Shown here one piece after another: positions 12,788-32,059 of a DNA stretch of 64,000 bases. This DNA comes from Escherichia phage ECML-183-2. The stretch lies in sequence record OL631481.1; one strand, given 5' to 3'. The position numbers were made by a program, and so were the translations under genes. The first letter of the stretch is position 1; each line of letters starts with the position of its first letter. The notes under the pieces are model-generated. The model saw only the letters and a list, made by a program, of their open reading frames with translations, was not told the origin of the DNA and did no database searches.

Positions 12788-13130
12788 GACAATCTCCTCT
12801 CATCGTTAGCCATCTTTCATGGCAATCATCAATCACCAACATCATACGATCAATCTTAAGGAATTACAATCGAATTATCATAGGGGATTCCTATCAATTA
12901 TCCCATATATACCGATTATTTTTGACACCCCATTCTTGTATAAAAAGTAACCCAAAATATCCACGGGGAGAGATTATTTCGACACACCCTGTTTCATGGC
13001 AATCATGGCAAGAATATCTAATAGAATCAATATCATATGGCAAAAATCATGGCGCATACGTAAGAAGTGCTTAACGCGAATTTTCGGGCCGTCAGGTCCA
13101 CGCAGCGACAATTCCCAAATATCATGCGAA

Positions 13131-13149
13131 TGAGAATAATTATCATTCG
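13131..13149. promoter_or_regulatory. Fur-box-like palindromic site
   Basis: GAGAATAATTATCATTCGT, 12 of 19 matches to GATAATGATAATCATTATC. Confidence 0.25.
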
Positions 13150-13310
13150 TATTCAATGACTTATGCAAGGCTCATGCCAACATAGCGACAAGGTGGGCCA
13201 CCTGATTATAAATCACACAAACACTTATTTATCAATGGTTTGGCAACTTCATCATATGACGGAACAATGTCAACTAATCCCGCTCATGACAGACGGACTA
13301 TTATTTATAT

Positions 13311-13329
13311 GAGAATGATTATTATTTAA
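13311..13329. promoter_or_regulatory. Fur-box-like palindromic site
   Basis: GAGAATGATTATTATTTAA. Confidence 0.25.
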
Positions 13330-14363
13330 ACGTTTATTAACATATAAACTAAAATAAATCAAGAATTTTCTGATTTTATTTACGTTTAAGAGAAGGTGCT
13401 CAACATCCTACCGGATCGCCGTTGGCAATCCTCGGATATTTACGCCCCCATGATTAAGGTTTATCTCTTTTATAGCTCAACATTCCCGCCTGTGGCGGTA
13501 ACATTTCGCCCCCAAAATTATTGACTTTTATTCTATTATGTGCATAGTGTGCAATGTATCGGAATGATGATAATCATCCTCCCATTGCCCCCATAATTAT
13601 TGCCATGCTAATTGTTTCATTACGTAATTATTACAATGACTATTGTTATTGCGCTAATGTTATGATCTTGGTAATTACATATAATGCTAATAATAAGCCA
13701 GCGCAATAAGTGTAAGCGTCATTACGCTTGCAATTATTGCAAGCTACGCAGTAACAAGAAATAACCATCACCGATGGTTATGATTGTTGGGGTGTAGTTG
13801 GCTTATTATTAGCTCGCTATGTGTCCGGCATAGCGTGCTAATGATGACTCTGTGAATGATTCGTTTTGTAATGATTTCATTCAGGCACTATTTTGCTAAT
13901 AGTTATTATTTTAATGGTTTCGTTTGTTATTGTTCGTTAGTTGGTTGTTTTGTCGTGTTATCGTTATTTTGCTTAGTATTTATCATGGTTTGATTGTTTG
14001 TCGTTATCAATCATCTTGCTATTATTCCTTTGATTATGATTAGTTTGCTTATTGTTTTATGTTGTTTGTTGGTTAGTTGTTGCGAACTATTATCAACATT
14101 ATAATTATGCGCTTATATTGCATAGATAATCATGGGTAGATGATAATGGTTATCATTGCACTAGAAAGGAGGTAAAAGGGTGTTTTTGATGGTTTGTTGT
14201 TGGTTGTTGATCGATTTTAACCGCTCTAAATAGCTCTCTAACAGCCTGTTGCCCTGGGATGTATGGTTATTCGTTTAATGGTCGATTAGCTCGATACCGT
14301 GATTTATTCAGTTTTGTTCTGTGTCGGTTTTTCATAGGCGAAAGCTATCAACATTGTTCGGGC

Positions 14364-14390
14364 AAAAAGAAAGGGCGCTTTGTGCGCCCT
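14364..14390 (-). terminator. rho-independent terminator closing the minus-strand array
   Basis: hairpin AGGGCGC-tttgt-GCGCCCT followed on the minus strand by TTTCTTTTT. Confidence 0.55.
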
Positions 14391-14405
14391 GGTATGAAAT
14401 GTTAT

Positions 14406-16386: not shown

Positions 16387-16442
16387 GCGGCACCATTGCC
16401 GCCCTACGTGGTAAATATTAGCACACTGGCGATCTGTGTCAA
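16387..16442 (-). promoter_or_regulatory. promoter plus leader-hairpin cassette
   Basis: TTGACA-N16-TAATAT, ttaccACGTAGGG, hairpin GCGGCAATGGTGCCGC. Confidence 0.6.
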
Positions 16443-16448
16443 TACTTT

Positions 16449-16835
16449 TTATTCAATATAAATCAAATTATCTTCACCAATGTAAGCCGACACGTTCGGC
16501 ATAAACTTAGCTGCATTGGTTAGGCGGTTCGCCGTGTTAGTGGTGTATATTTCAGGGCGATCCCAAAAGCCTACGCCGTGACCGTTACGGGTAAAATGTA
16601 AATCATTCCCGATCTGGTTGGCTGTTGCGCCGTCGCTCATTGCCTCAGAGATAGCGGCAAGATTAGCATTAATAAAGGCTGTTACATCCTGGGCGATCCG
16701 TTGATGGGCTTGATCTGAAAAATCATAATCAGTCATGTCATCTATAAAATTACCTTCATGATCCCTTGCGGATTCAGCAAAAATAAAGGCTTCTTTATAA
16801 CCGTTGATGATTTCAATAATGATTTCTGTTTTCAT
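16449..16835 (-). CDS. hypothetical protein (128 aa)
   Basis: ATGA-coupled to upstream ORF. Confidence 0.5.
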   Translation of the reverse strand: MKTEIIIEIINGYKEAFIFAESARDHEGNFIDDMTDYDFSDQAHQRIAQDVTAFINANLAAISEAMSDGATANQIGNDLHFTRNGHGVGFWDRPEIYTTNTANRLTNAAKFMPNVSAYIGEDNLIYIE

Positions 16836-17056
16836 GCTGTACGCTCGACAATAATAATAGTTTGCGGGATCTCGTTTTCTACTACTAACAAGGCTTTTTT
16901 CTGTGTGATAGATATTTTAACACGTTGTAAAGTAGCGGTGAAATCTTTCATTTCATTATGCGCGGACTTCGTGCAATGCCAGATCTCAGGCTTACCAACT
17001 TGTAAGCCGCGTAAAAATTCCGTTTTGCCTGTTTTGTTCGTGATCATTTGTTTCAC
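16832..17056 (-). CDS. hypothetical protein (74 aa)
   Basis: AAGGTGA RBS. Confidence 0.5.
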   Translation of the reverse strand: MKQMITNKTGKTEFLRGLQVGKPEIWHCTKSAHNEMKDFTATLQRVKISITQKKALLVVENEIPQTIIIVERTA

Positions 17057-17057
17057 C

Positions 17058-17162
17058 TTAACCGATACCGTGGGAAGATAGGATCATGTTAGCCATAGTT
17101 GCAACCACTCCAACCGATAACGCCAGGCCCACTATTACAACCGTGAAAATTTTCTCTAACAT
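17058..17162 (-). CDS. small hydrophobic peptide (34 aa)
   Basis: track ORF trimmed to ATG downstream of the cassette; GAGGG RBS. Confidence 0.35.
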   Translation of the reverse strand: MLEKIFTVVIVGLALSVGVVATMANMILSSHGIG

Positions 17163-17180
17163 GATTCTACCCTCATTAAT

Positions 17181-17242
17181 GGGCGTTGCACCATTGCCCC
17201 GCCCTACGTAATACACTTTACCAGATAACAAATTATTGTCAA
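17181..17242 (-). promoter_or_regulatory. promoter plus leader-hairpin cassette
   Basis: TTGACA-N16-TAAAGT, ACGTAGGG, GC hairpin. Confidence 0.55.
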
Positions 17243-17306
17243 GGTTTATTTTACTTCCCAAACGGAAAATTCACTGCGTGGCGGGAAGTATTCCCCGCCT
17301 TATTAA

Positions 17307-17477
17307 TTACTCTTCATCGTCGCCGTTATAGTATTCAATGCCGTTTTCATCGGTTACGGTGATGTTAACGCCACCGATAGCAACACGATCACGGGCAAAC
17401 GTCATAGCTTCATTTAAATCTTCAGACCAAAAAATATTGTGACCTTTGCGCGATACATAAAACATAGTCGGGATCAT
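17307..17477 (-). CDS. hypothetical protein (56 aa)
   Basis: track ORF trimmed to ATG (MIPTMF) downstream of hairpin. Confidence 0.45.
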   Translation of the reverse strand: MIPTMFYVSRKGHNIFWSEDLNEAMTFARDRVAIGGVNITVTDENGIEYYNGDDEE

Positions 17478-17499
17478 GATTTGTTTCTCTTCTGTTGTG

Positions 17500-17561
17500 A
17501 GCGGTGGACCATTCCGCCGCCCTATGTGGTAAACTTTACTACGTTGTTTGCCTGTTGTCAA
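17500..17561 (-). promoter_or_regulatory. promoter plus leader-hairpin cassette
   Basis: TTGACA-N17-TAAAGT, ttaccACATAGGG, hairpin GGCGGCGGAATGGTCCACCGC. Confidence 0.6.
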
Positions 17562-17562
17562 A

Positions 17563-17847
17563 TTATTTTTTAATGTTTTGCCCTACAAAATTGATCACTT
17601 CCTTAAGCTGTCTCTCTGTCATGATCGTACCTGGTAACTCTTCTTTAATTTCTTCCGGTAAATAGATATTACCGCGCCAGGTTAACAAACAACCGTTTTG
17701 ATCTTCGCAGATAGAATAAGAAAACATCCACTCGCAATCATTTTCAAGCTCCCAAAAACACAAAAAGTCTTCTTTCCCTAAGTTTTCAACGGTTAAACAT
17801 AATCCGCGACGTGCTGCATAATTAGTCAGGCTTTTTGTGATTTTCAT
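17563..17847 (-). CDS. hypothetical Cys-rich protein (94 aa)
   Basis: track ORF trimmed to ATG (MKITKS) downstream of hairpin. Confidence 0.5.
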   Translation of the reverse strand: MKITKSLTNYAARRGLCLTVENLGKEDFLCFWELENDCEWMFSYSICEDQNGCLLTWRGNIYLPEEIKEELPGTIMTERQLKEVINFVGQNIKK

Positions 17848-17869
17848 GATTTTTCTCTCTTCTTGTGAG

Positions 17870-17924
17870 CGGCACCATTGCCGCCCTACAAGATACATAT
17901 TATCAGACTAGGCGGACTTGTCAA
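17870..17924 (-). promoter_or_regulatory. promoter plus leader-hairpin cassette
   Basis: TTGACA-N16-TAATAT, hairpin GCGGCAATGGTGCCGC. Confidence 0.6.
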
Positions 17925-17925
17925 A

Positions 17926-18036
17926 CTATTTTTTCTTTTTCTTTGCTTCCAACCGTCTAAGGTTACGGCTTGACTTATTTCGCAAGGCGCTTAGATCGTC
18001 GTACCCTTTCCATGCTTGCATATCTTTCGGATTCAT
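17926..18036 (-). CDS. small basic protein (36 aa)
   Basis: hand-translated MNPKDMQAWKGYDD...; AAGGGG RBS. Confidence 0.3.
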   Translation of the reverse strand: MNPKDMQAWKGYDDLSALRNKSSRNLRRLEAKKKKK

Positions 18037-18045
18037 GTTATCCCC

Positions 18046-18207
18046 TTACTTGTTAGCCGGATCATATACCAGGACCGCGCCGCTTGCTTTCACGCTTTCC
18101 GCTTCATAGTTGCGCAGATCGTTTTCTGTAAGGTTGAGCGCGATCACTTCCTCGATCTCAACGTCAGCGGCAAGGGCGATCTCTTTGATAATGTCTGTTG
18201 TTTTCAT
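18046..18207 (-). CDS. small protein (53 aa)
   Basis: hand-translated MKTTDIIKEIALAADVE...; AAGGTG RBS. Confidence 0.35.
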   Translation of the reverse strand: MKTTDIIKEIALAADVEIEEVIALNLTENDLRNYEAESVKASGAVLVYDPANK

Positions 18208-18217
18208 AGTACGCACC

Positions 18218-18337
18218 TTATAAGATGATTGATAAGATAGTGATAACGAAAGCGATTATACTGATGGCAAATGTCATCTTTTTACCTTCGGATACTGCCG
18301 GATTTTCTACCGTGTATTCTACTGTGTACTTGCTCAT
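18218..18337 (-). CDS. small membrane-anchored peptide (39 aa)
   Basis: hand-translated; GAGAGG RBS; C-terminal hydrophobic helix. Confidence 0.3.
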   Translation of the reverse strand: MSKYTVEYTVENPAVSEGKKMTFAISIIAFVITILSIIL

Positions 18338-23407: not shown

Positions 23408-23665
23408 TTAACCACCTTTTTTCAACAATTGGCATACTTTAAAAAGACTTGCTGAATCCTTGCAAGGGTAGAAAGATGTACGATAATCACGTACGCCAAC
23501 CTTGCGGATCTCGATGTTCTCGCATGTTGTTTGATCAAAGATATTTATTTCATCACGCCCCCTTATATAAACATAGTGGGGATGTATTAACGCATATTTT
23601 GCTAATCTGTAAAAAGCGTTATCTTTGAACGCGATCACGTGACCTTTTAATTTGATGTAAAACAT
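23408..23665 (-). CDS. hypothetical protein (85 aa)
   Basis: GGTGG RBS; downstream of cassette. Confidence 0.5.
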   Translation of the reverse strand: MFYIKLKGHVIAFKDNAFYRLAKYALIHPHYVYIRGRDEINIFDQTTCENIEIRKVGVRDYRTSFYPCKDSASLFKVCQLLKKGG

Positions 23666-23683
23666 TCTACCACCTTACAAATA

Positions 23684-23738
23684 GCGGGAACTATTCCCGC
23701 TTTATGTAACATATTAACAAATTATTCGTTAATGTCAA
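23684..23738 (-). promoter_or_regulatory. promoter plus leader-hairpin cassette
   Basis: TTGACA-N16-TAATAT, hairpin GCGGGAATAGTTCCCGC. Confidence 0.55.
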
Positions 23739-23741
23739 ACC

Positions 23742-24014
23742 TTAAAGCAAAAACGCTACATCTTGCGCTTTTAGTGTAGTATCAACCATTTTCGGGCTTT
23801 TATAATCAACAAAGCGCGCGGTTTTTTCAATAGCGAAACCGAGATAATCTTGTTTATTGAATTTACATTCTTTCTTAAATGTTTCCCGCGCCACGGTGAT
23901 CGCTGCGTCCAGGGATAAACGCCCGTCAATGTTGATATTTGCGAAAGATCCGCCACCGCTCATAGGTTTACCAGTGGTGCCAGCTACGATCATTGTTGCG
24001 CTATATGATGCCAT
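23742..24014 (-). CDS. hypothetical protein (90 aa)
   Basis: track ORF trimmed to ATG (MASYSA) downstream of hairpin. Confidence 0.5.
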   Translation of the reverse strand: MASYSATMIVAGTTGKPMSGGGSFANINIDGRLSLDAAITVARETFKKECKFNKQDYLGFAIEKTARFVDYKSPKMVDTTLKAQDVAFLL

Positions 24015-24038
24015 GATTATAATCTCTCTTCTGTTGTG

Positions 24039-24100
24039 AGCGGCTGGACCATTCCGCCGCCCTATGTGATACATCTTATCAGGTTGTTGTTTGTTGTCAA
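24039..24100 (-). promoter_or_regulatory. promoter plus leader-hairpin cassette
   Basis: TTGACA-N16-TAAGAT, gtatcACATAGGG, hairpin GGCGGCGGAATGGTCCAGCCGC. Confidence 0.6.
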
Positions 24101-24106
24101 TACTTT

Positions 24107-24304
24107 TTATTCTATTCCTGCAATTTGATTAACGCGCTTGCATTTTGTAGCGTGCTGGTCTTCTGTAATGACTCCCATTTCTAACAGGGAATCAATGAAA
24201 GATAAAACCGTTTCATGATCATCCTGGGGATGACTGAACTCAGTAAAACCGTTTACCACGACGCTGATTTGTCCTGCTTTCGCTACTATGTGCAATGTTG
24301 CCAT
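24107..24304 (-). CDS. hypothetical protein (65 aa)
   Basis: track ORF trimmed to ATG (MATLHIV) downstream of hairpin. Confidence 0.5.
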   Translation of the reverse strand: MATLHIVAKAGQISVVVNGFTEFSHPQDDHETVLSFIDSLLEMGVITEDQHATKCKRVNQIAGIE

Positions 24305-24325
24305 GATTTTAACTCCAAATAATGA

Positions 24326-24382
24326 GCGGCACCATTGCCGCCCTACGTGGTAAATATTATGCCGCCACCTGGCGAACGTCAA
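24326..24382 (-). promoter_or_regulatory. promoter plus leader-hairpin cassette (first of array)
   Basis: TTGACG-N17-TAATAT, ttaccACGTAGGG, hairpin GCGGCAATGGTGCCGC. Confidence 0.55.
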
Positions 24383-24491
24383 TCACTTTTTCAATCTTTT
24401 TTATTTTCTTTTTGCTTGCTATATATAAAAGAAAGGGCTATCATCTTTCTACCGCGCCAACCAGGGCGCACATCAAAGAAAGGGCGATACC

Positions 24492-24758
24492 ATGACAAAT
24501 ACTACATTACACCTTATGCACTCATTGGGCTGGCAAGGCGGCACGGTGCACCAGGTAGCAAGCGCAACGGGCTTAAAGGTTGAAACAGTTCTCAACCTGG
24601 GCGATCATAAGGTGGAAGAAATAGATCATTTTGATACGTTCGCAAATGGTTATCTATGGGCTTGCAGTGGCGGCGGGGAAAGCAAGATACCACCAGGGGC
24701 GCGGGGCGATATGTATTTTTGGTTAGGTGTCCTATCCTGGCAAGAAAACAAAAAATAA
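24492..24758 (+). CDS. hypothetical protein (88 aa), possible small DNA-binding regulator
   Basis: only plus-strand ORF at the head of the array; AAGGG RBS; candidate extended -10 (TGcTATATA) upstream. Confidence 0.4.
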   Translation: MTNTTLHLMHSLGWQGGTVHQVASATGLKVETVLNLGDHKVEEIDHFDTFANGYLWACSGGGESKIPPGARGDMYFWLGVLSWQENKK

Positions 24759-24760
24759 TC

Positions 24761-24789
24761 TTGACAAGCCCAGGGATCGGGCTTATACT
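24761..24789 (+). promoter_or_regulatory. sigma70-like promoter with no CDS downstream
   Basis: TTGACA-N17-TATACT on the plus strand. Confidence 0.5.
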
Positions 24790-24795
24790 GTTTTA

Positions 24796-24900
24796 CATAC
24801 AGAAGAGGAAGCGCCACCCCACGGCGTAAAGGCGGGGCTAACATACCAGGGGGGGCACTGGTTGGAAGGTTGATCGCCGGTAGGCTGGGCGCTATATATT
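24796..24900 (+). ncRNA. candidate small structured RNA (GC-rich island)
   Basis: begins after promoter 24761-24789; GC-rich with paired GCGCC / GGCGC ends, followed by TATATATTT; no ORF with RBS. Confidence 0.3.
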
Positions 24901-25023
24901 TGTAAAGAAATGTAAAGATAAAATAATCGCTTGCTTTCCTGGCTGGATCTGTTATTCTTATTACATGGCGAGGGGACACGGGAGCGCGAGACAAACACCG
25001 CCCCTGCGCGTCATTCTCTAAAT

Positions 25024-25042
25024 GAGAATGATTATCATTTAC
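25024..25042. promoter_or_regulatory. Fur-box-like palindromic site
   Basis: GAGAATGATTATCATTTAC, 15 of 19 matches to Fur consensus; flanked by inverted repeat TCATTCTC / GAGAATGA. Confidence 0.3.
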
Positions 25043-25081
25043 CTTATCAAATAAGAATCAATCTCATTTATAAACCTAAAT

Positions 25082-25100
25082 GCGAATCATTATCATTTGC
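25082..25100. promoter_or_regulatory. Fur-box-like palindromic site
   Basis: GCGAATCATTATCATTTGC. Confidence 0.25.
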
Positions 25101-25145
25101 ATTTCCATATGAGAACTCTTCTCATTCCCATCTGCATAAATTTTT

Positions 25146-25328
25146 GTAAACTTTAAATTTTGCTTTTGTACTTTCATTTTTGTAAAAGCAAAAAAACTTT
25201 AAATACTGTGGGCGCGCAAAATTTTTAAAATTTTCCTTGACTTTTGAGTTTTGTTTTGTATCTAACATTTTAAGATAATTTTCCTAAACTTTAAATTTTG
25301 GTTTTCAACTTTCACTTTTGTAAATTCT
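25146..25328. repeat. AT-rich direct repeats (two copies of about 43 bp plus shorter reiterations)
   Basis: aactttaaattttgcttttgtactttcatttttgtaaaa repeated as aactttaaattttggttttcaactttcacttttgtaaat; tttgagata reiterated at 25350-25390. Confidence 0.5.
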
Positions 25329-25566
25329 TAAAAAGTTTAAATAATTTGAGGGATTTTTGAGATAATAGGTAGTGGGAATTTGAGATAACCTTTAATCTTA
25401 TTAGTAGACCTTCAGGAACCCACTCAGATCGAATCCTAGTGATGCAAACTGAAAAAGACAAGGGTTTGTATAGGACAAAATAACAGGCTCTCTACGGTGC
25501 TGTAGGAGCCTTATTTCTGTGCTACAAAGTGACACCTTTGTTCTAAAAATGAAAAAAGTTAAAATA

Positions 25567-26109
25567 TCACAAATATCGTCTTTGCGGTATTTTGTCTGGG
25601 AAAAGTATTTCGATCAGTTTGTTATGATATTTACCTAAAAGATTTTGCCCTTTCCAGTTGACCGGATTTAGCACCCCTGGTTCATACATTCCCATTCCAA
25701 TACCGTAAACCTTATCGTAAGGACTTGCTTCAACAAACGTTTTGTATTGGTAAAGGTGTAAGTCTGCATACAAATCTGGATTCTGTACATATTTCAAGCA
25801 TAAACCTCGCATAACAATACGCTCACGGTTCTCTTCCCATACGTTGTTATCAAAATCCGACACTGCCCTACCCATACGTTTGTAATAAGCTTGAATCTTC
25901 TCATCTTTCCGTATCAAACTATGAGTCAGAATAGCCTGTGCAGTGTTGTGATCATTAAAAAGCAAAGCTTTACGCCACATTATGTATTGTTCGACACAAT
26001 TAAATGTCTGATTGTAACCTGGTTCGGTTTCTGTAAAGGGTGCAATATACCAATTACTAAAAACATCTTTATGTGAAAAGAAGAATACATAATCATCAGT
26101 TATTCGCAT
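25567..26109 (-). CDS. NADAR-domain protein (YbiA-like, DUF1768)
   Basis: YVFFFSHKDVFSNWYIAPF and EQYIMWRKALLF motifs typical of NADAR N-glycosidase domain. Confidence 0.6.
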   Translation of the reverse strand: MRITDDYVFFFSHKDVFSNWYIAPFTETEPGYNQTFNCVEQYIMWRKALLFNDHNTAQAILTHSLIRKDEKIQAYYKRMGRAVSDFDNNVWEENRERIVMRGLCLKYVQNPDLYADLHLYQYKTFVEASPYDKVYGIGMGMYEPGVLNPVNWKGQNLLGKYHNKLIEILFPDKIPQRRYL

Positions 26110-26284
26110 TTTTCATACTCTCCAAAATTTCACGTTGCCCTTGCTGATAGGCTTTCATCAGAACTACTTTAAGGTTTGTCTCCAAGAGGTCTTCATTGTA
26201 ATTATACCGCTCCACAACATATGTCAATTCATCATAAAGATGAAGAACGGGGTAGAATACAGGGTTATCTGCTAAACGTGCCAT
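26096..26284 (-). CDS. hypothetical protein (62 aa)
   Basis: start moved to ATG (MARLAD) after AAAGGAGA RBS. Confidence 0.4.
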   Translation of the reverse strand: MARLADNPVFYPVLHLYDELTYVVERYNYNEDLLETNLKVVLMKAYQQGQREILESMKNANN

Positions 26285-26297
26285 AGTTTCTCCTTTG

Positions 26298-26663
26298 TTA
26301 ATCCATCCACCAGTAGCCATAAACTGCGTCTGCGTCGATGAGTTTGTGTTTGTTGTTCCGCATGTAGTCTAAGATAAGTAGACGTTTATTGTATCTGGAG
26401 AGATTATGACCCTCTTTTCCGCCATAGTCAAAATATTTTGCAAGATCTTTACACTCAAACAAAATCAGTTCGGGAGTTTCTTCACACTGGTCTGTCTGGT
26501 ACACTTGACGAATGATCATGTATACATCGTCGTCTTCCGCTAAATGCTCTACTGGTCCACATCCAGCAGGAACAAATTCATAGTCCCATCTGATCAGATG
26601 TTTCTCTACTGCTTCAAAGAAGTCCATTCTTTCGTTGCGCATAATTTGAACGTCAACTAACAT
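26298..26663 (-). CDS. hypothetical protein (121 aa)
   Basis: AGGAGG RBS. Confidence 0.5.
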   Translation of the reverse strand: MLVDVQIMRNERMDFFEAVEKHLIRWDYEFVPAGCGPVEHLAEDDDVYMIIRQVYQTDQCEETPELILFECKDLAKYFDYGGKEGHNLSRYNKRLLILDYMRNNKHKLIDADAVYGYWWMD

Positions 26664-30911: not shown

Positions 30912-31195
30912 CGTGCCTTCTCCCGATCTGCATCTAATTTCAACAAGAAAGCTGTATACTCTTCCGAACCTTGGTGTAAAAACATGTGATAAGAGCTTAC
31001 CAGTTTCTTCGTTGTCGTATAACGTTCCATTTCCCCAACAACACCTCCACCTAGTGTGTAGAGCACAATACCTTCAACTCCAACATGGGTTACTACTTCA
31101 ACCAAATCTCTGTTATCCCAATAGTAGTTAGGTGACACAATAAGATCTCCCACTGCCAGTTTAATGTTTGCTACTTCGTCTTGTGAATAGTACAT
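30908..31195 (-). CDS. hypothetical protein (95 aa)
   Basis: GAGAGGAGA RBS. Confidence 0.5.
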   Translation of the reverse strand: MYYSQDEVANIKLAVGDLIVSPNYYWDNRDLVEVVTHVGVEGIVLYTLGGGVVGEMERYTTTKKLVSSYHMFLHQGSEEYTAFLLKLDADREKAR

Positions 31196-31207
31196 TTTGT
31201 TCTCCTC

Positions 31208-31501
31208 TCACATTAAGACACGTTTTGTATCGATGGGTGCATTATCAAACATGTTAAGAACATTGTCAAGCAGTTTTACTAATTCATTTGTAATTTGTTC
31301 TTTTGAACGGGAGGAAGTGAGCACTTTGCTTTCACCAATGATATGCATAACTTTTATAGGGGCATCTAAAATAATGTTGTGTTGACGATCCTCTTCAAAA
31401 GAAGCCAACCATTTCTCATTGTTACCGTGCAAGGCTACAATCACACCAAAACCGTTAATTGTTTCAGAAATATTCTTAGTTGCTAAAGTAATGTTCATCA
31501 T
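31208..31501 (-). CDS. hypothetical protein (97 aa)
   Basis: AGAGGTAG RBS; first gene of minus-strand operon. Confidence 0.5.
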   Translation of the reverse strand: MMNITLATKNISETINGFGVIVALHGNNEKWLASFEEDRQHNIILDAPIKVMHIIGESKVLTSSRSKEQITNELVKLLDNVLNMFDNAPIDTKRVLM

Positions 31502-31557
31502 CTACCTCTCTTGTTAATGTTCATACATGATACCTGAAAATAATTTCAGATCAAGTA

Positions 31558-31585
31558 TTGACATACTTTTTAATCTTGTTAAGAT
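31558..31585 (+). promoter_or_regulatory. sigma70-like promoter opening the plus-strand module
   Basis: TTGACA-N16-TAAGAT then AAAAGGAG RBS and ATG 31616. Confidence 0.6.
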
Positions 31586-31615
31586 CAACTCCTACCAAAC
31601 AAAAGGAGAAAACAA

Positions 31616-32059
31616 ATGCAAAACATCCAAAACATCAAACTGACTTGGCCCGAAGCTAAAGAAGCAATGAAGGAAGGTAGACGTGTTGAGCACCGCCATT
31701 TTTGTGGTGGCGAATGGTTTGAGATGCGAGATGGTGTTATTCTCGACGAACAAGGTTATAACATGGAAACTTGGTTCAGAGGGGAAGCTTGGCAGGAAGA
31801 GGGTTGGTCTGTAATTGAAAAAGAAGACAGTAAGGAAGAAGGCGTGTTGTCTAATGTAGAACGCGAGATGAGGGAAACAAAGATACCTGCTTTGGATTTT
31901 GTATACCTGGAAGAACTTGTGGCAGCATCTTTTGTAGCAGGAAACCTTTGGAATACACCTGTTAGCCGACTGGAGAACCAAAATAACCCGTCTACTCGTA
32001 ATCACAAGCTTTATAAGGGTAAAGGTCACAACAAATTAAAGAAAGGAAAGAAGAAATGA
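31616..32059 (+). CDS. hypothetical protein with lysine-rich C-terminus (147 aa)
   Basis: first ORF after promoter. Confidence 0.55.
   Translation: MQNIQNIKLTWPEAKEAMKEGRRVEHRHFCGGEWFEMRDGVILDEQGYNMETWFRGEAWQEEGWSVIEKEDSKEEGVLSNVEREMRETKIPALDFVYLEELVAASFVAGNLWNTPVSRLENQNNPSTRNHKLYKGKGHNKLKKGKKK

Follow-up and report, generated by a model that had tools for sequence, protein, structure and literature searches.

A conserved non-coding structured RNA predicted in the early region of phAPEC8-like and rV5-related phages

The oop RNA of phage lambda is a short non-coding transcript with its own sigma-70 promoter, made in the lytic control region next to dyads and AT-rich DNA. It acts as an antisense RNA against cII and ends at a defined terminator. 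At the primary origin of T7 (1.1A/1.1B plus AT-rich DNA) and at the T4 R-loop origins ori(uvsY) and ori(34), promoters fire into AT-rich, gene-poor DNA. The put RNAs of phage HK022 are structured RNAs that lie just after an early promoter and carry no terminator of their own, and phage phiTE holds pseudo-ToxI, a locus of 1.5 tandem ToxI-like repeats at 106.7 kb. For rV5, the genome paper marks a “non-coding” box only. Here we describe a locus of Escherichia phage ECML-183-2 in which a GC-rich island around position 24,800 is, as judged by comparative sequence analysis, the gene for a non-coding RNA on the + strand. The predicted transcript is designated RNA1.

The window, by which we mean the whole stretch of 64,000 nucleotides that was analyzed (sequence record OL631481.1), is a Phapecoctavirus (phAPEC8/ESCO13-like) segment with 96-99% identity to vB_Ec-G1, UP17, ESCO13 and phAPEC8 (Stephanstirmvirinae). 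About 1.1 kb of it (24383-25566) is without genes and is flanked on both sides by blocks of minus-strand genes; all recognizable elements in this gap lie on the + strand and point rightward. The gap is bordered on the right by an operon whose final gene has a NADAR domain (25567-26109) and on the left by a long series of tiny early genes, every one of them behind a sigma-70-type promoter of its own. Note that each of the minus-strand early promoters (TTGACA...TAATAT type) between 16089 and 24382, for example that at 24300-24382, is followed in the 5' leader by a conserved GGGCGGCAATGGTGCCGC-type hairpin, and that this cassette of promoter plus stem-loop is repeated in at least 8-14 copies (repeat families D1-D6). 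Note also that the cumulative GC skew has its minimum at about 31000-32000, coinciding with the switch from minus- to + strand genes (nucleotide metabolism, DNA helicase).

A preliminary description of this DNA had taken 24761-25010 as one promoter-driven unit, GC-rich against AT-rich surroundings. The + strand of this interval instead contains two tandem promoter-led units, of which RNA1 is the first (Table 1). The compositional contrast holds downstream, where GC content drops from 0.61 (24800-24899) to 0.18-0.32 (25000-25350), compared with about 0.39-0.41 for the window overall; it lies chiefly on that side because the upstream ORF is already 0.45-0.54 GC. This ORF of 88 aa contains an HTH-like motif (LGWQGGTVHQVAxxTGLxV) and matches phrog_19316, a family with no function assigned. 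The form GGTVHQVAxxTGLxVxTVL is kept in Escherichia, Klebsiella, Serratia and phiTE relatives. As a partner of RNA1 the ORF is inconstant: in GAP31, KB57 and others its place is taken by small ORFs unrelated to it, and CR8 has no annotated ORF there.

Table 1. Coordinates and strand of the features recognized at the RNA1 locus.
Feature	Position	Strand	Remarks
ORF of 88 aa	24492-24758	+	Upstream of the RNA units; sole + strand protein gene here; annotated in ESCO13 and vB_Ec-G1
Promoter P1: TTGACA (24761-66), 17-nt spacer, TATACT (24784-89)	24761-24789	+	11/12 to consensus
GC hairpin AAGCCC-AGGGATC-GGGCTT, then ATACTGTTTT	24766-24784	+	Within the P1 spacer; terminator-like for the upstream + strand ORF
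RNA1, conserved structured RNA of ~93 nt (predicted)	24796-24888	+	Covariance-model match, 101.7 bits
Purine-rich RNA1 leader	24796-24811	+	
RNA1 5' hairpin segments, CGCC/GGCG	24812-15/24823-26	+	
Possible pseudoknot in RNA1, loop CCC with GGG	24818-20 with 24835-37	+	
Hairpin P3	24838-24849 with 24858-24868	+	Loop holds the G7 run
Invariant 11-nt RNA1 tail ATCGCCGGTAG (AUCGCCGGUAG)	24873-24883	+	
Clade-specific 3' arm, TGGGCGC plus TATATATTT	24886-24901	+	Pairs with GCGCCA 24811-16; window's closest relatives only
Direct repeat GTAAA-N5-GTAAA	24902-24916	+	Upstream of P2; only copy in the window (0.43 expected)
Promoter P2: TTGCTT (24931-36), 16-nt spacer, TATTCT (24953-58)	24931-24958	+	Predicted start ~24965
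RNA2 unit (predicted)	24965-25042	+	GC-rich variable 5' half, blocks GAGACAAACACC and CTGCGCGTCATTCT, hairpin 25010-25032
Four 15-bp palindromes, type TGAGAATnATTCTCA	25023-25124		Starts 25023, 25052, 25081, 25110; exactly 29 bp apart
AT-rich region, GC 0.18-0.28	25139-25348		Two 72-nt direct repeats; recurring TTTGTAAA, AAACTTTAAAT
Hairpin AGGCTCTCTAC...GTAGGAGCCT	25485-25511		Matches the position of the terminator annotated in phAPEC8 (upstream minus-strand operon); right border of the non-coding region
Candidate target site of the HNH endonuclease of locus L114, GGATCGCCGGTAG			

A covariance model of RNA1 was built from 16 sequences. It finds a single copy in the 64-kb window. Across isolates, IMG/VR and metagenomes it detects 48 loci, of which 43 are distinct, with each genome carrying one copy. 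The carriers are phAPEC8/phi92-like phages (Stephanstirmvirinae) and most rV5-related phages (Vequintavirinae). Loose scans of genomes and metagenomes gave mostly chance matches in GC-rich bacteria, and the model matched phage-size contigs only. Sensitive blastn with 24740-25020 matched 231 phage records. For distant phages (50+ records), the alignment is reduced to 24792-24918 at 79-85% identity, mostly without annotation; these carriers include Klebsiella KB57/BIS47, Cronobacter CR8/CR9/GAP31, Pectobacterium phiTE, Salmonella PVP-SE1-like, Serratia and Erwinia phages. RNA1 is thus about 80% identical across genera where the flanks fail to align. The order of elements was constant in 17 diverse aligned loci, running from P1 through RNA1 (~90 nt), the motif TTTTGTAAAGAAnTGTAAAGAC, P2 and the RNA2 block to the palindrome array. 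No copy of RNA1 was found in 5,426 E. coli genomes or in PLSDB, in which the sole match to the locus comes from a phage genome of the rV5 type entered among the plasmids. Host labels look doubtful for three records that match closely across the locus, namely those of Campylobacter phages B15 and A150 (96% and 91% identity, respectively, over the queries) and of Acinetobacter phage vB_AbaM_ABPW7 (~99%).

Promoter P1, already recognized in the preliminary description as a consensus-like TTGACA-N17-TATACT, is the top sigma-70 match in the 3 kb covered by the promoter scan (23500-26500). Its predicted start is at about 24796-24797, and an A-rich AAAAAATAATC lies immediately upstream. P1 is kept in most relatives, with −35 and −10 elements found by pattern search in 29 of the 32 distinct upstream sequences. 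Across lineages the −35 hexamer reads TTGACA, TTGACG or TTGCAA, the spacer is 17-18 nt long and the −10 hexamer is TATAnT-like. The latter ends 1-6 nt before the covariance-model match, and the sequence of the spacer is freely variable. Many lineages have a GC hairpin in this spacer, with a stem sequence that depends on lineage and a loop that is often of GNRA type (GCAA, GTAAA-like, GAAA). Since the 17-18-nt spacer forms the hairpin, the promoter overlaps a terminator-like RNA hairpin.

Comparative data provide good support for P3 as a conserved hairpin kept by compensatory changes. In the model-fitted alignment, seven of its nine pairs have changes on both sides, 93.5% of cells are paired and none of 500 shuffles reaches the covariation score. 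Using MAFFT only (36 sequences), both-side changes affect 4/9 pairs and 95.1% of cells are paired; 39 both-side cells were counted versus 11.0 in shuffles, a value again reached by 0/500, and slid-partner controls were 24-49% paired. The RNA1 helices have five G.U cells versus no A.C cells, which favors an RNA of the + strand. The remaining helices are short, GC-rich and invariant, as are the GC-rich segments of 4-5 nt that flank P3, and covariation therefore cannot settle the topology of RNA1. The segment CGCC occurs twice (24812-15 and 24875-78); GGCG is universal at 24823-26 and restricted to the main clade at 24831-34. Pairing in the candidate CCC/GGG pseudoknot is 98%, and one of its pairs switches from C-G to A-U in seven sequences, probably as a single evolutionary event. 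RNAalifold (36 sequences) prefers a long-range CGGCG/CGCCG helix over the 5' hairpin. Another long-range helix (helix P2 of RNA1, GGCGG/UCGCC) was rejected, as it breaks in a variant clade.

Folding of the single sequence is less informative, the minimum free energy (MFE) structure being weakly better than shuffles (z = −1.83, 9/200). It pairs 24810-24815 with the 3' arm. The complementary ends to which the preliminary description had pointed (GCGCCAC, 24811-24817, and TGGGCGC, 24886-24892) exist and pair in this structure, but they are clade-specific: the 3' arm is missing in relatives of 89-93% identity, for example tuntematon and phi92. The closing helix that they form was for this reason rejected as part of the conserved fold.

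RNA1 ranges from 84 to 96 nt across homologues, with the indels in the tip of P3. The G run in the P3 loop, 7 nt in the window (24849-24855), is 6, 5 or 4 nt in otherwise near-identical phages, and its indels of 1, 2 and 5 nt are not multiples of three. Because the length of RNA1 varies through such loop indels, neither strand can code. (The G run itself is either a hypervariable homopolymer or a hotspot of sequencing errors.) A small protein gene on one strand or the other would agree with existing annotation, which places a 114-aa minus-strand ORF here in phAPEC8 and ‘hypothetical proteins’ in other records, and open frames over the island do exist as a result of its high GC content. These frames, however, change or vanish among phages of 96-99% identity: there is one of 71 aa in the window and one of 51 aa in another frame in locus L211, and tuntematon has none of 35 aa or more. 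No ribosome-binding site paired with a start codon was found over the island, as the preliminary description had also held, and the ATG at 24966 is not conserved (ATA in many relatives). We therefore regard the 114-aa ORF and similar annotations as artefacts of GC-rich DNA; a coding gene is scarcely credible here, and for practical purposes the comparison excludes a coding role for RNA1. The earlier proposal of a small RNA is supported by the promoter conserved at a fixed distance, the identity of about 80%, the compensatory changes and the frame-breaking indels.

The tail TATATATTT that had been noted after the GC segment is present at 24893-24901, but it is specific to the clade, and the terminator scan detected no + strand terminator in 24790-25010. 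No conserved hairpin is formed by the sequence after CGCCGGTAG, where the closing helix and UAUAUAUUU occur in the window's clade only. With no conserved terminator behind it, RNA1 would either be cut from a longer P1 transcript or be the 5' domain of one. In a KB57-like locus (L114, 6297-7129, minus strand), a 197-aa ORF with its own Shine-Dalgarno sequence begins directly after ...GGATCGCTGGTA. The ORF matches phrog_953, annotated as HNH endonuclease (7.6e-79), and has no Pfam match. Behind it come a second promoter and a divergent, Erwinia-type copy of RNA1 (25.7 bits), followed by the normal downstream elements. From its sequence the arrangement looks like a homing-endonuclease insertion with co-converted flanks, and we read its position right after RNA1 as indirect evidence of strong constraint on the site and of transcription from P1 continuing past RNA1.

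The second unit begins with the GTAAA direct repeat. GTAAA-N5-6-GTAAA is the published CpxR motif (PMC9600279), and the repeat agrees with its letters upstream of a −35 hexamer, making it a candidate CpxR site. It is conserved, with a degenerate second half-site in Serratia, Erwinia and some other lineages. Its start lies 20 nt from the P2 −35 in most phages and 29-30 nt from it in the window's clade, where an A-rich insert, similar to the sequence that precedes P1, adds to the distance. The P2 hexamers are conserved and their spacer sequence varies among relatives. In RNA2, the conserved blocks can also be given as GAGACAAnCACC and CTGCCCGTCATTCTG, and the terminal hairpin doubles as the first of the four palindromes. 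RNAalifold yields no consensus fold for RNA2. Presentation of its GAGACAAnCA motif in the loop of a hairpin was considered and failed the shuffle test (3.12 versus 3.24 bp). Note that record CP057073.1, a 137.6-kb ‘E. coli plasmid’, has two RNA2-like units at 16411-18319 (L374), each with a palindrome and without RNA1; the record is of rV5 size and carries the phage locus, so it is probably the genome of an rV5-like phage.

The four palindromes downstream are probable protein-binding sites. The Fur box, written as a 7-1-7 inverted repeat, has the consensus letters TGATAATnATTATCA. Allowing up to two mismatches to these letters, the window contains six sites versus 0.70 expected, and five of the six fall in its two gene-free regions. 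The palindromes are candidate Fur sites, with the reservation that the phage consensus, compared with the Fur box, has G or C at the fourth position of each half-site. The 7-1-7 model itself is described in PMC2189734. The second gene-free region is about 1.6 kb long (12790-14400) and contains Fur-box-like palindromes at 13131, 13310, 13568, 14081 and 14141 (TGATAATGGTTATCA). It also contains GGATCGCCG at 13412-13420, which resembles the tail of RNA1, and the two regions (12.8-14.4 kb and 24.4-25.5 kb) bracket the early-gene block.

At the RNA1 locus, the palindromes and the AT-rich DNA together make up a dyad-symmetric site array adjoining AT-rich DNA, as in iteron-type (lambda-like) origins. 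In phiTE and KB57-like relatives, CGAGACC/GATCGAGA iteron-like repeats and A5-6T5-6 tracts are found at the same place; the repeats are lineage-specific (CGAGACC in phiTE). RNA1 stays with RNA2, the palindromes and the AT-rich DNA despite inserts of 260 nt (L215) or ~740 nt (L114). Neither DnaA boxes near the locus nor a replication initiator among the neighboring genes, which are unassigned or NADAR, was recognized. A neighboring 278-aa gene of phiTE was considered as an initiator and has only matches with function unassigned.

Searches for known RNAs gave no counterpart of RNA1. Nothing in Rfam 15 reached its gathering threshold anywhere in the window; when the cut-off was relaxed to E ≤ 10 for 24300-25600, the island gave a single match, Bp1_684 (15 bits versus a threshold of 44). 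This covariance-model scan, one of the checks proposed at the outset, assigns RNA1 to no described family. ARAGORN found no tRNA or tmRNA genes in the window, and 24790-24900 contains no tandem or direct repeats of the ToxI-like kind (~34-36 nt). Several likenesses were dropped: phiTE pseudo-ToxI is in another place (106,714-106,772), the base that matches GGAAGG of 4.5S RNA covaries with its P3 partner, and a resemblance to type I-E CRISPR repeats has no Rfam CRISPR-DR match behind it. We found no paper describing RNA1, which might be included in a catalogue of 10,006 viral structured-RNA candidates (PMC10690425).

As to function, we favor an early structured RNA, made by host RNA polymerase and acting as RNA, probably in trans as a protein-binding or decoy-type molecule, a reading in which our confidence is about evenly balanced with doubt. 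Host RNA polymerase would transcribe RNA1 from P1 early in infection, mature RNA1 would be cut from (or be the 5' domain of) a P1 transcript running through RNA2, and the folded RNA, rather than a peptide or the DNA alone, would be the functional product. A protein-binding type is preferred to a base-pairing sRNA because it is structure and short invariant blocks that are conserved and because the window offers no complementary target; near-complements of the RNA1 tail ATCGCCGGTAG and of the RNA2 motif occur there at chance level. Of the hallmarks of an Hfq-type sRNA, RNA1 has its own promoter and lacks a terminator hairpin with U tail at its 3' end. The constancy of the locus fits a role in cis as well as one in trans, and the main rival is accordingly a cis-acting origin or control element in which transcription from P1 and P2 enters the palindromes and the AT-rich DNA and its products activate or prime replication. 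The tandem promoters, the four evenly spaced dyads, the adjoining DNA of 18-28% GC with its 72-nt repeats, the iteron-like repeats and A/T tracts of relatives, and the retention of RNA1 in the locus despite insertions would all suit an origin, as would the positive GC skew of the + strand, which also makes the RNA G-rich; moreover, the origin of rV5-type phages was never defined (PMC3606486). We nevertheless consider this rival unlikely. DnaA boxes and a recognizable initiator are missing nearby, the GC-skew turn lies away from the locus at ~32 kb, where gene orientation flips, and the same palindromes recur in the second gene-free region (12.8-14.4 kb). Known primer or R-loop origins need no covarying hairpin, and P1 and the AT-rich DNA are separated by a variable distance (~240 to ~1000 nt). 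A more ambitious version, that the RNA1-RNA2-palindrome-AT-rich locus is a replication origin or master control region linked to stress sensors of the host through the CpxR-type box and Fur-box-like palindromes, strikes us as improbable. If true, it would mean that host-polymerase transcripts with a conserved folded RNA activate or prime replication of the rV5/phAPEC8 type.

Two further readings are less likely. RNA1 could be a leader like HK022 put, the nascent RNA modifying RNA polymerase such that transcripts from P1 read through and those from P2, having no RNA1, stop at 25010-25032. Its onset some 16 nt past the predicted start, the palindromes that can form hairpins downstream of a unit with no conserved terminator, and its place as the 5' leader of the homing-endonuclease gene in L114 are in keeping with such a role. 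Yet no + strand gene follows for about 6 kb, so read-through would have no obvious product; RNA1 matches no Rfam family in sequence or structure, and in the window's clade it is followed by the closing helix and a U-rich tail. We give this reading only a small chance. That the element acts purely as DNA, with the blocks serving as protein-binding or recombination sites (for example as a homing-endonuclease target), the hairpin as a cruciform and the transcript as incidental, seems to us very unlikely. Several blocks are indeed invariant and do not covary, the HNH endonuclease gene is inserted at the invariant 3' block and RNA2 is conserved in sequence with no supported fold. Against this, the promoter keeps a fixed distance and its spacer sequence varies, the helices have G.U cells in the absence of A.C cells, and the compensatory changes in P3 are the hallmark of a folded single strand. 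Homing endonucleases target sequence that is already constrained, so the insertion does not explain the constraint.

RNA1 is among the most conserved early-region sequences in several genera and probably does something important early in infection. Phages of the phAPEC8, phi92, PVP-SE1 and KB57 types are common among isolates and serve as candidates for therapy against E. coli, Klebsiella, Salmonella and Cronobacter; their genomes are annotated as empty or with spurious “hypothetical proteins” over RNA1. The locus is a starting point both for correcting these annotations and toward the origin or control region of rV5/phAPEC8-type phages.

By sequence and predicted structure, RNA1 adds a new family to a known kind, the small structured RNAs encoded by phages. 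Its similarity to lambda oop is one of setting and promoter; unlike oop, it lacks both an antisense partner gene and a conserved terminator, and it has a covarying hairpin and invariant GC blocks. We know of no sequence relation between the two. Compared with the T7 and T4 origins, whose promoters are phage-specific or of the middle mode and whose transcripts require no conserved fold, the promoters here are of the host sigma-70 type and RNA1 is conserved in structure; on the rival origin reading, the T7 origin, the T4 ori(uvsY) R-loops and ColE1 RNA II would be the models for activation or priming by RNA1/RNA2. RNA1 resembles the put RNAs in its position and differs from them in sequence and structure and in having no + strand genes behind it to profit from antitermination. 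Pseudo-ToxI, like RNA1, is a non-coding RNA locus in an rV5-like phage of the same subfamily, and it is separate from the RNA1 homologue of phiTE, which lies at about 39.7-39.9 kb and is without tandem repeats.
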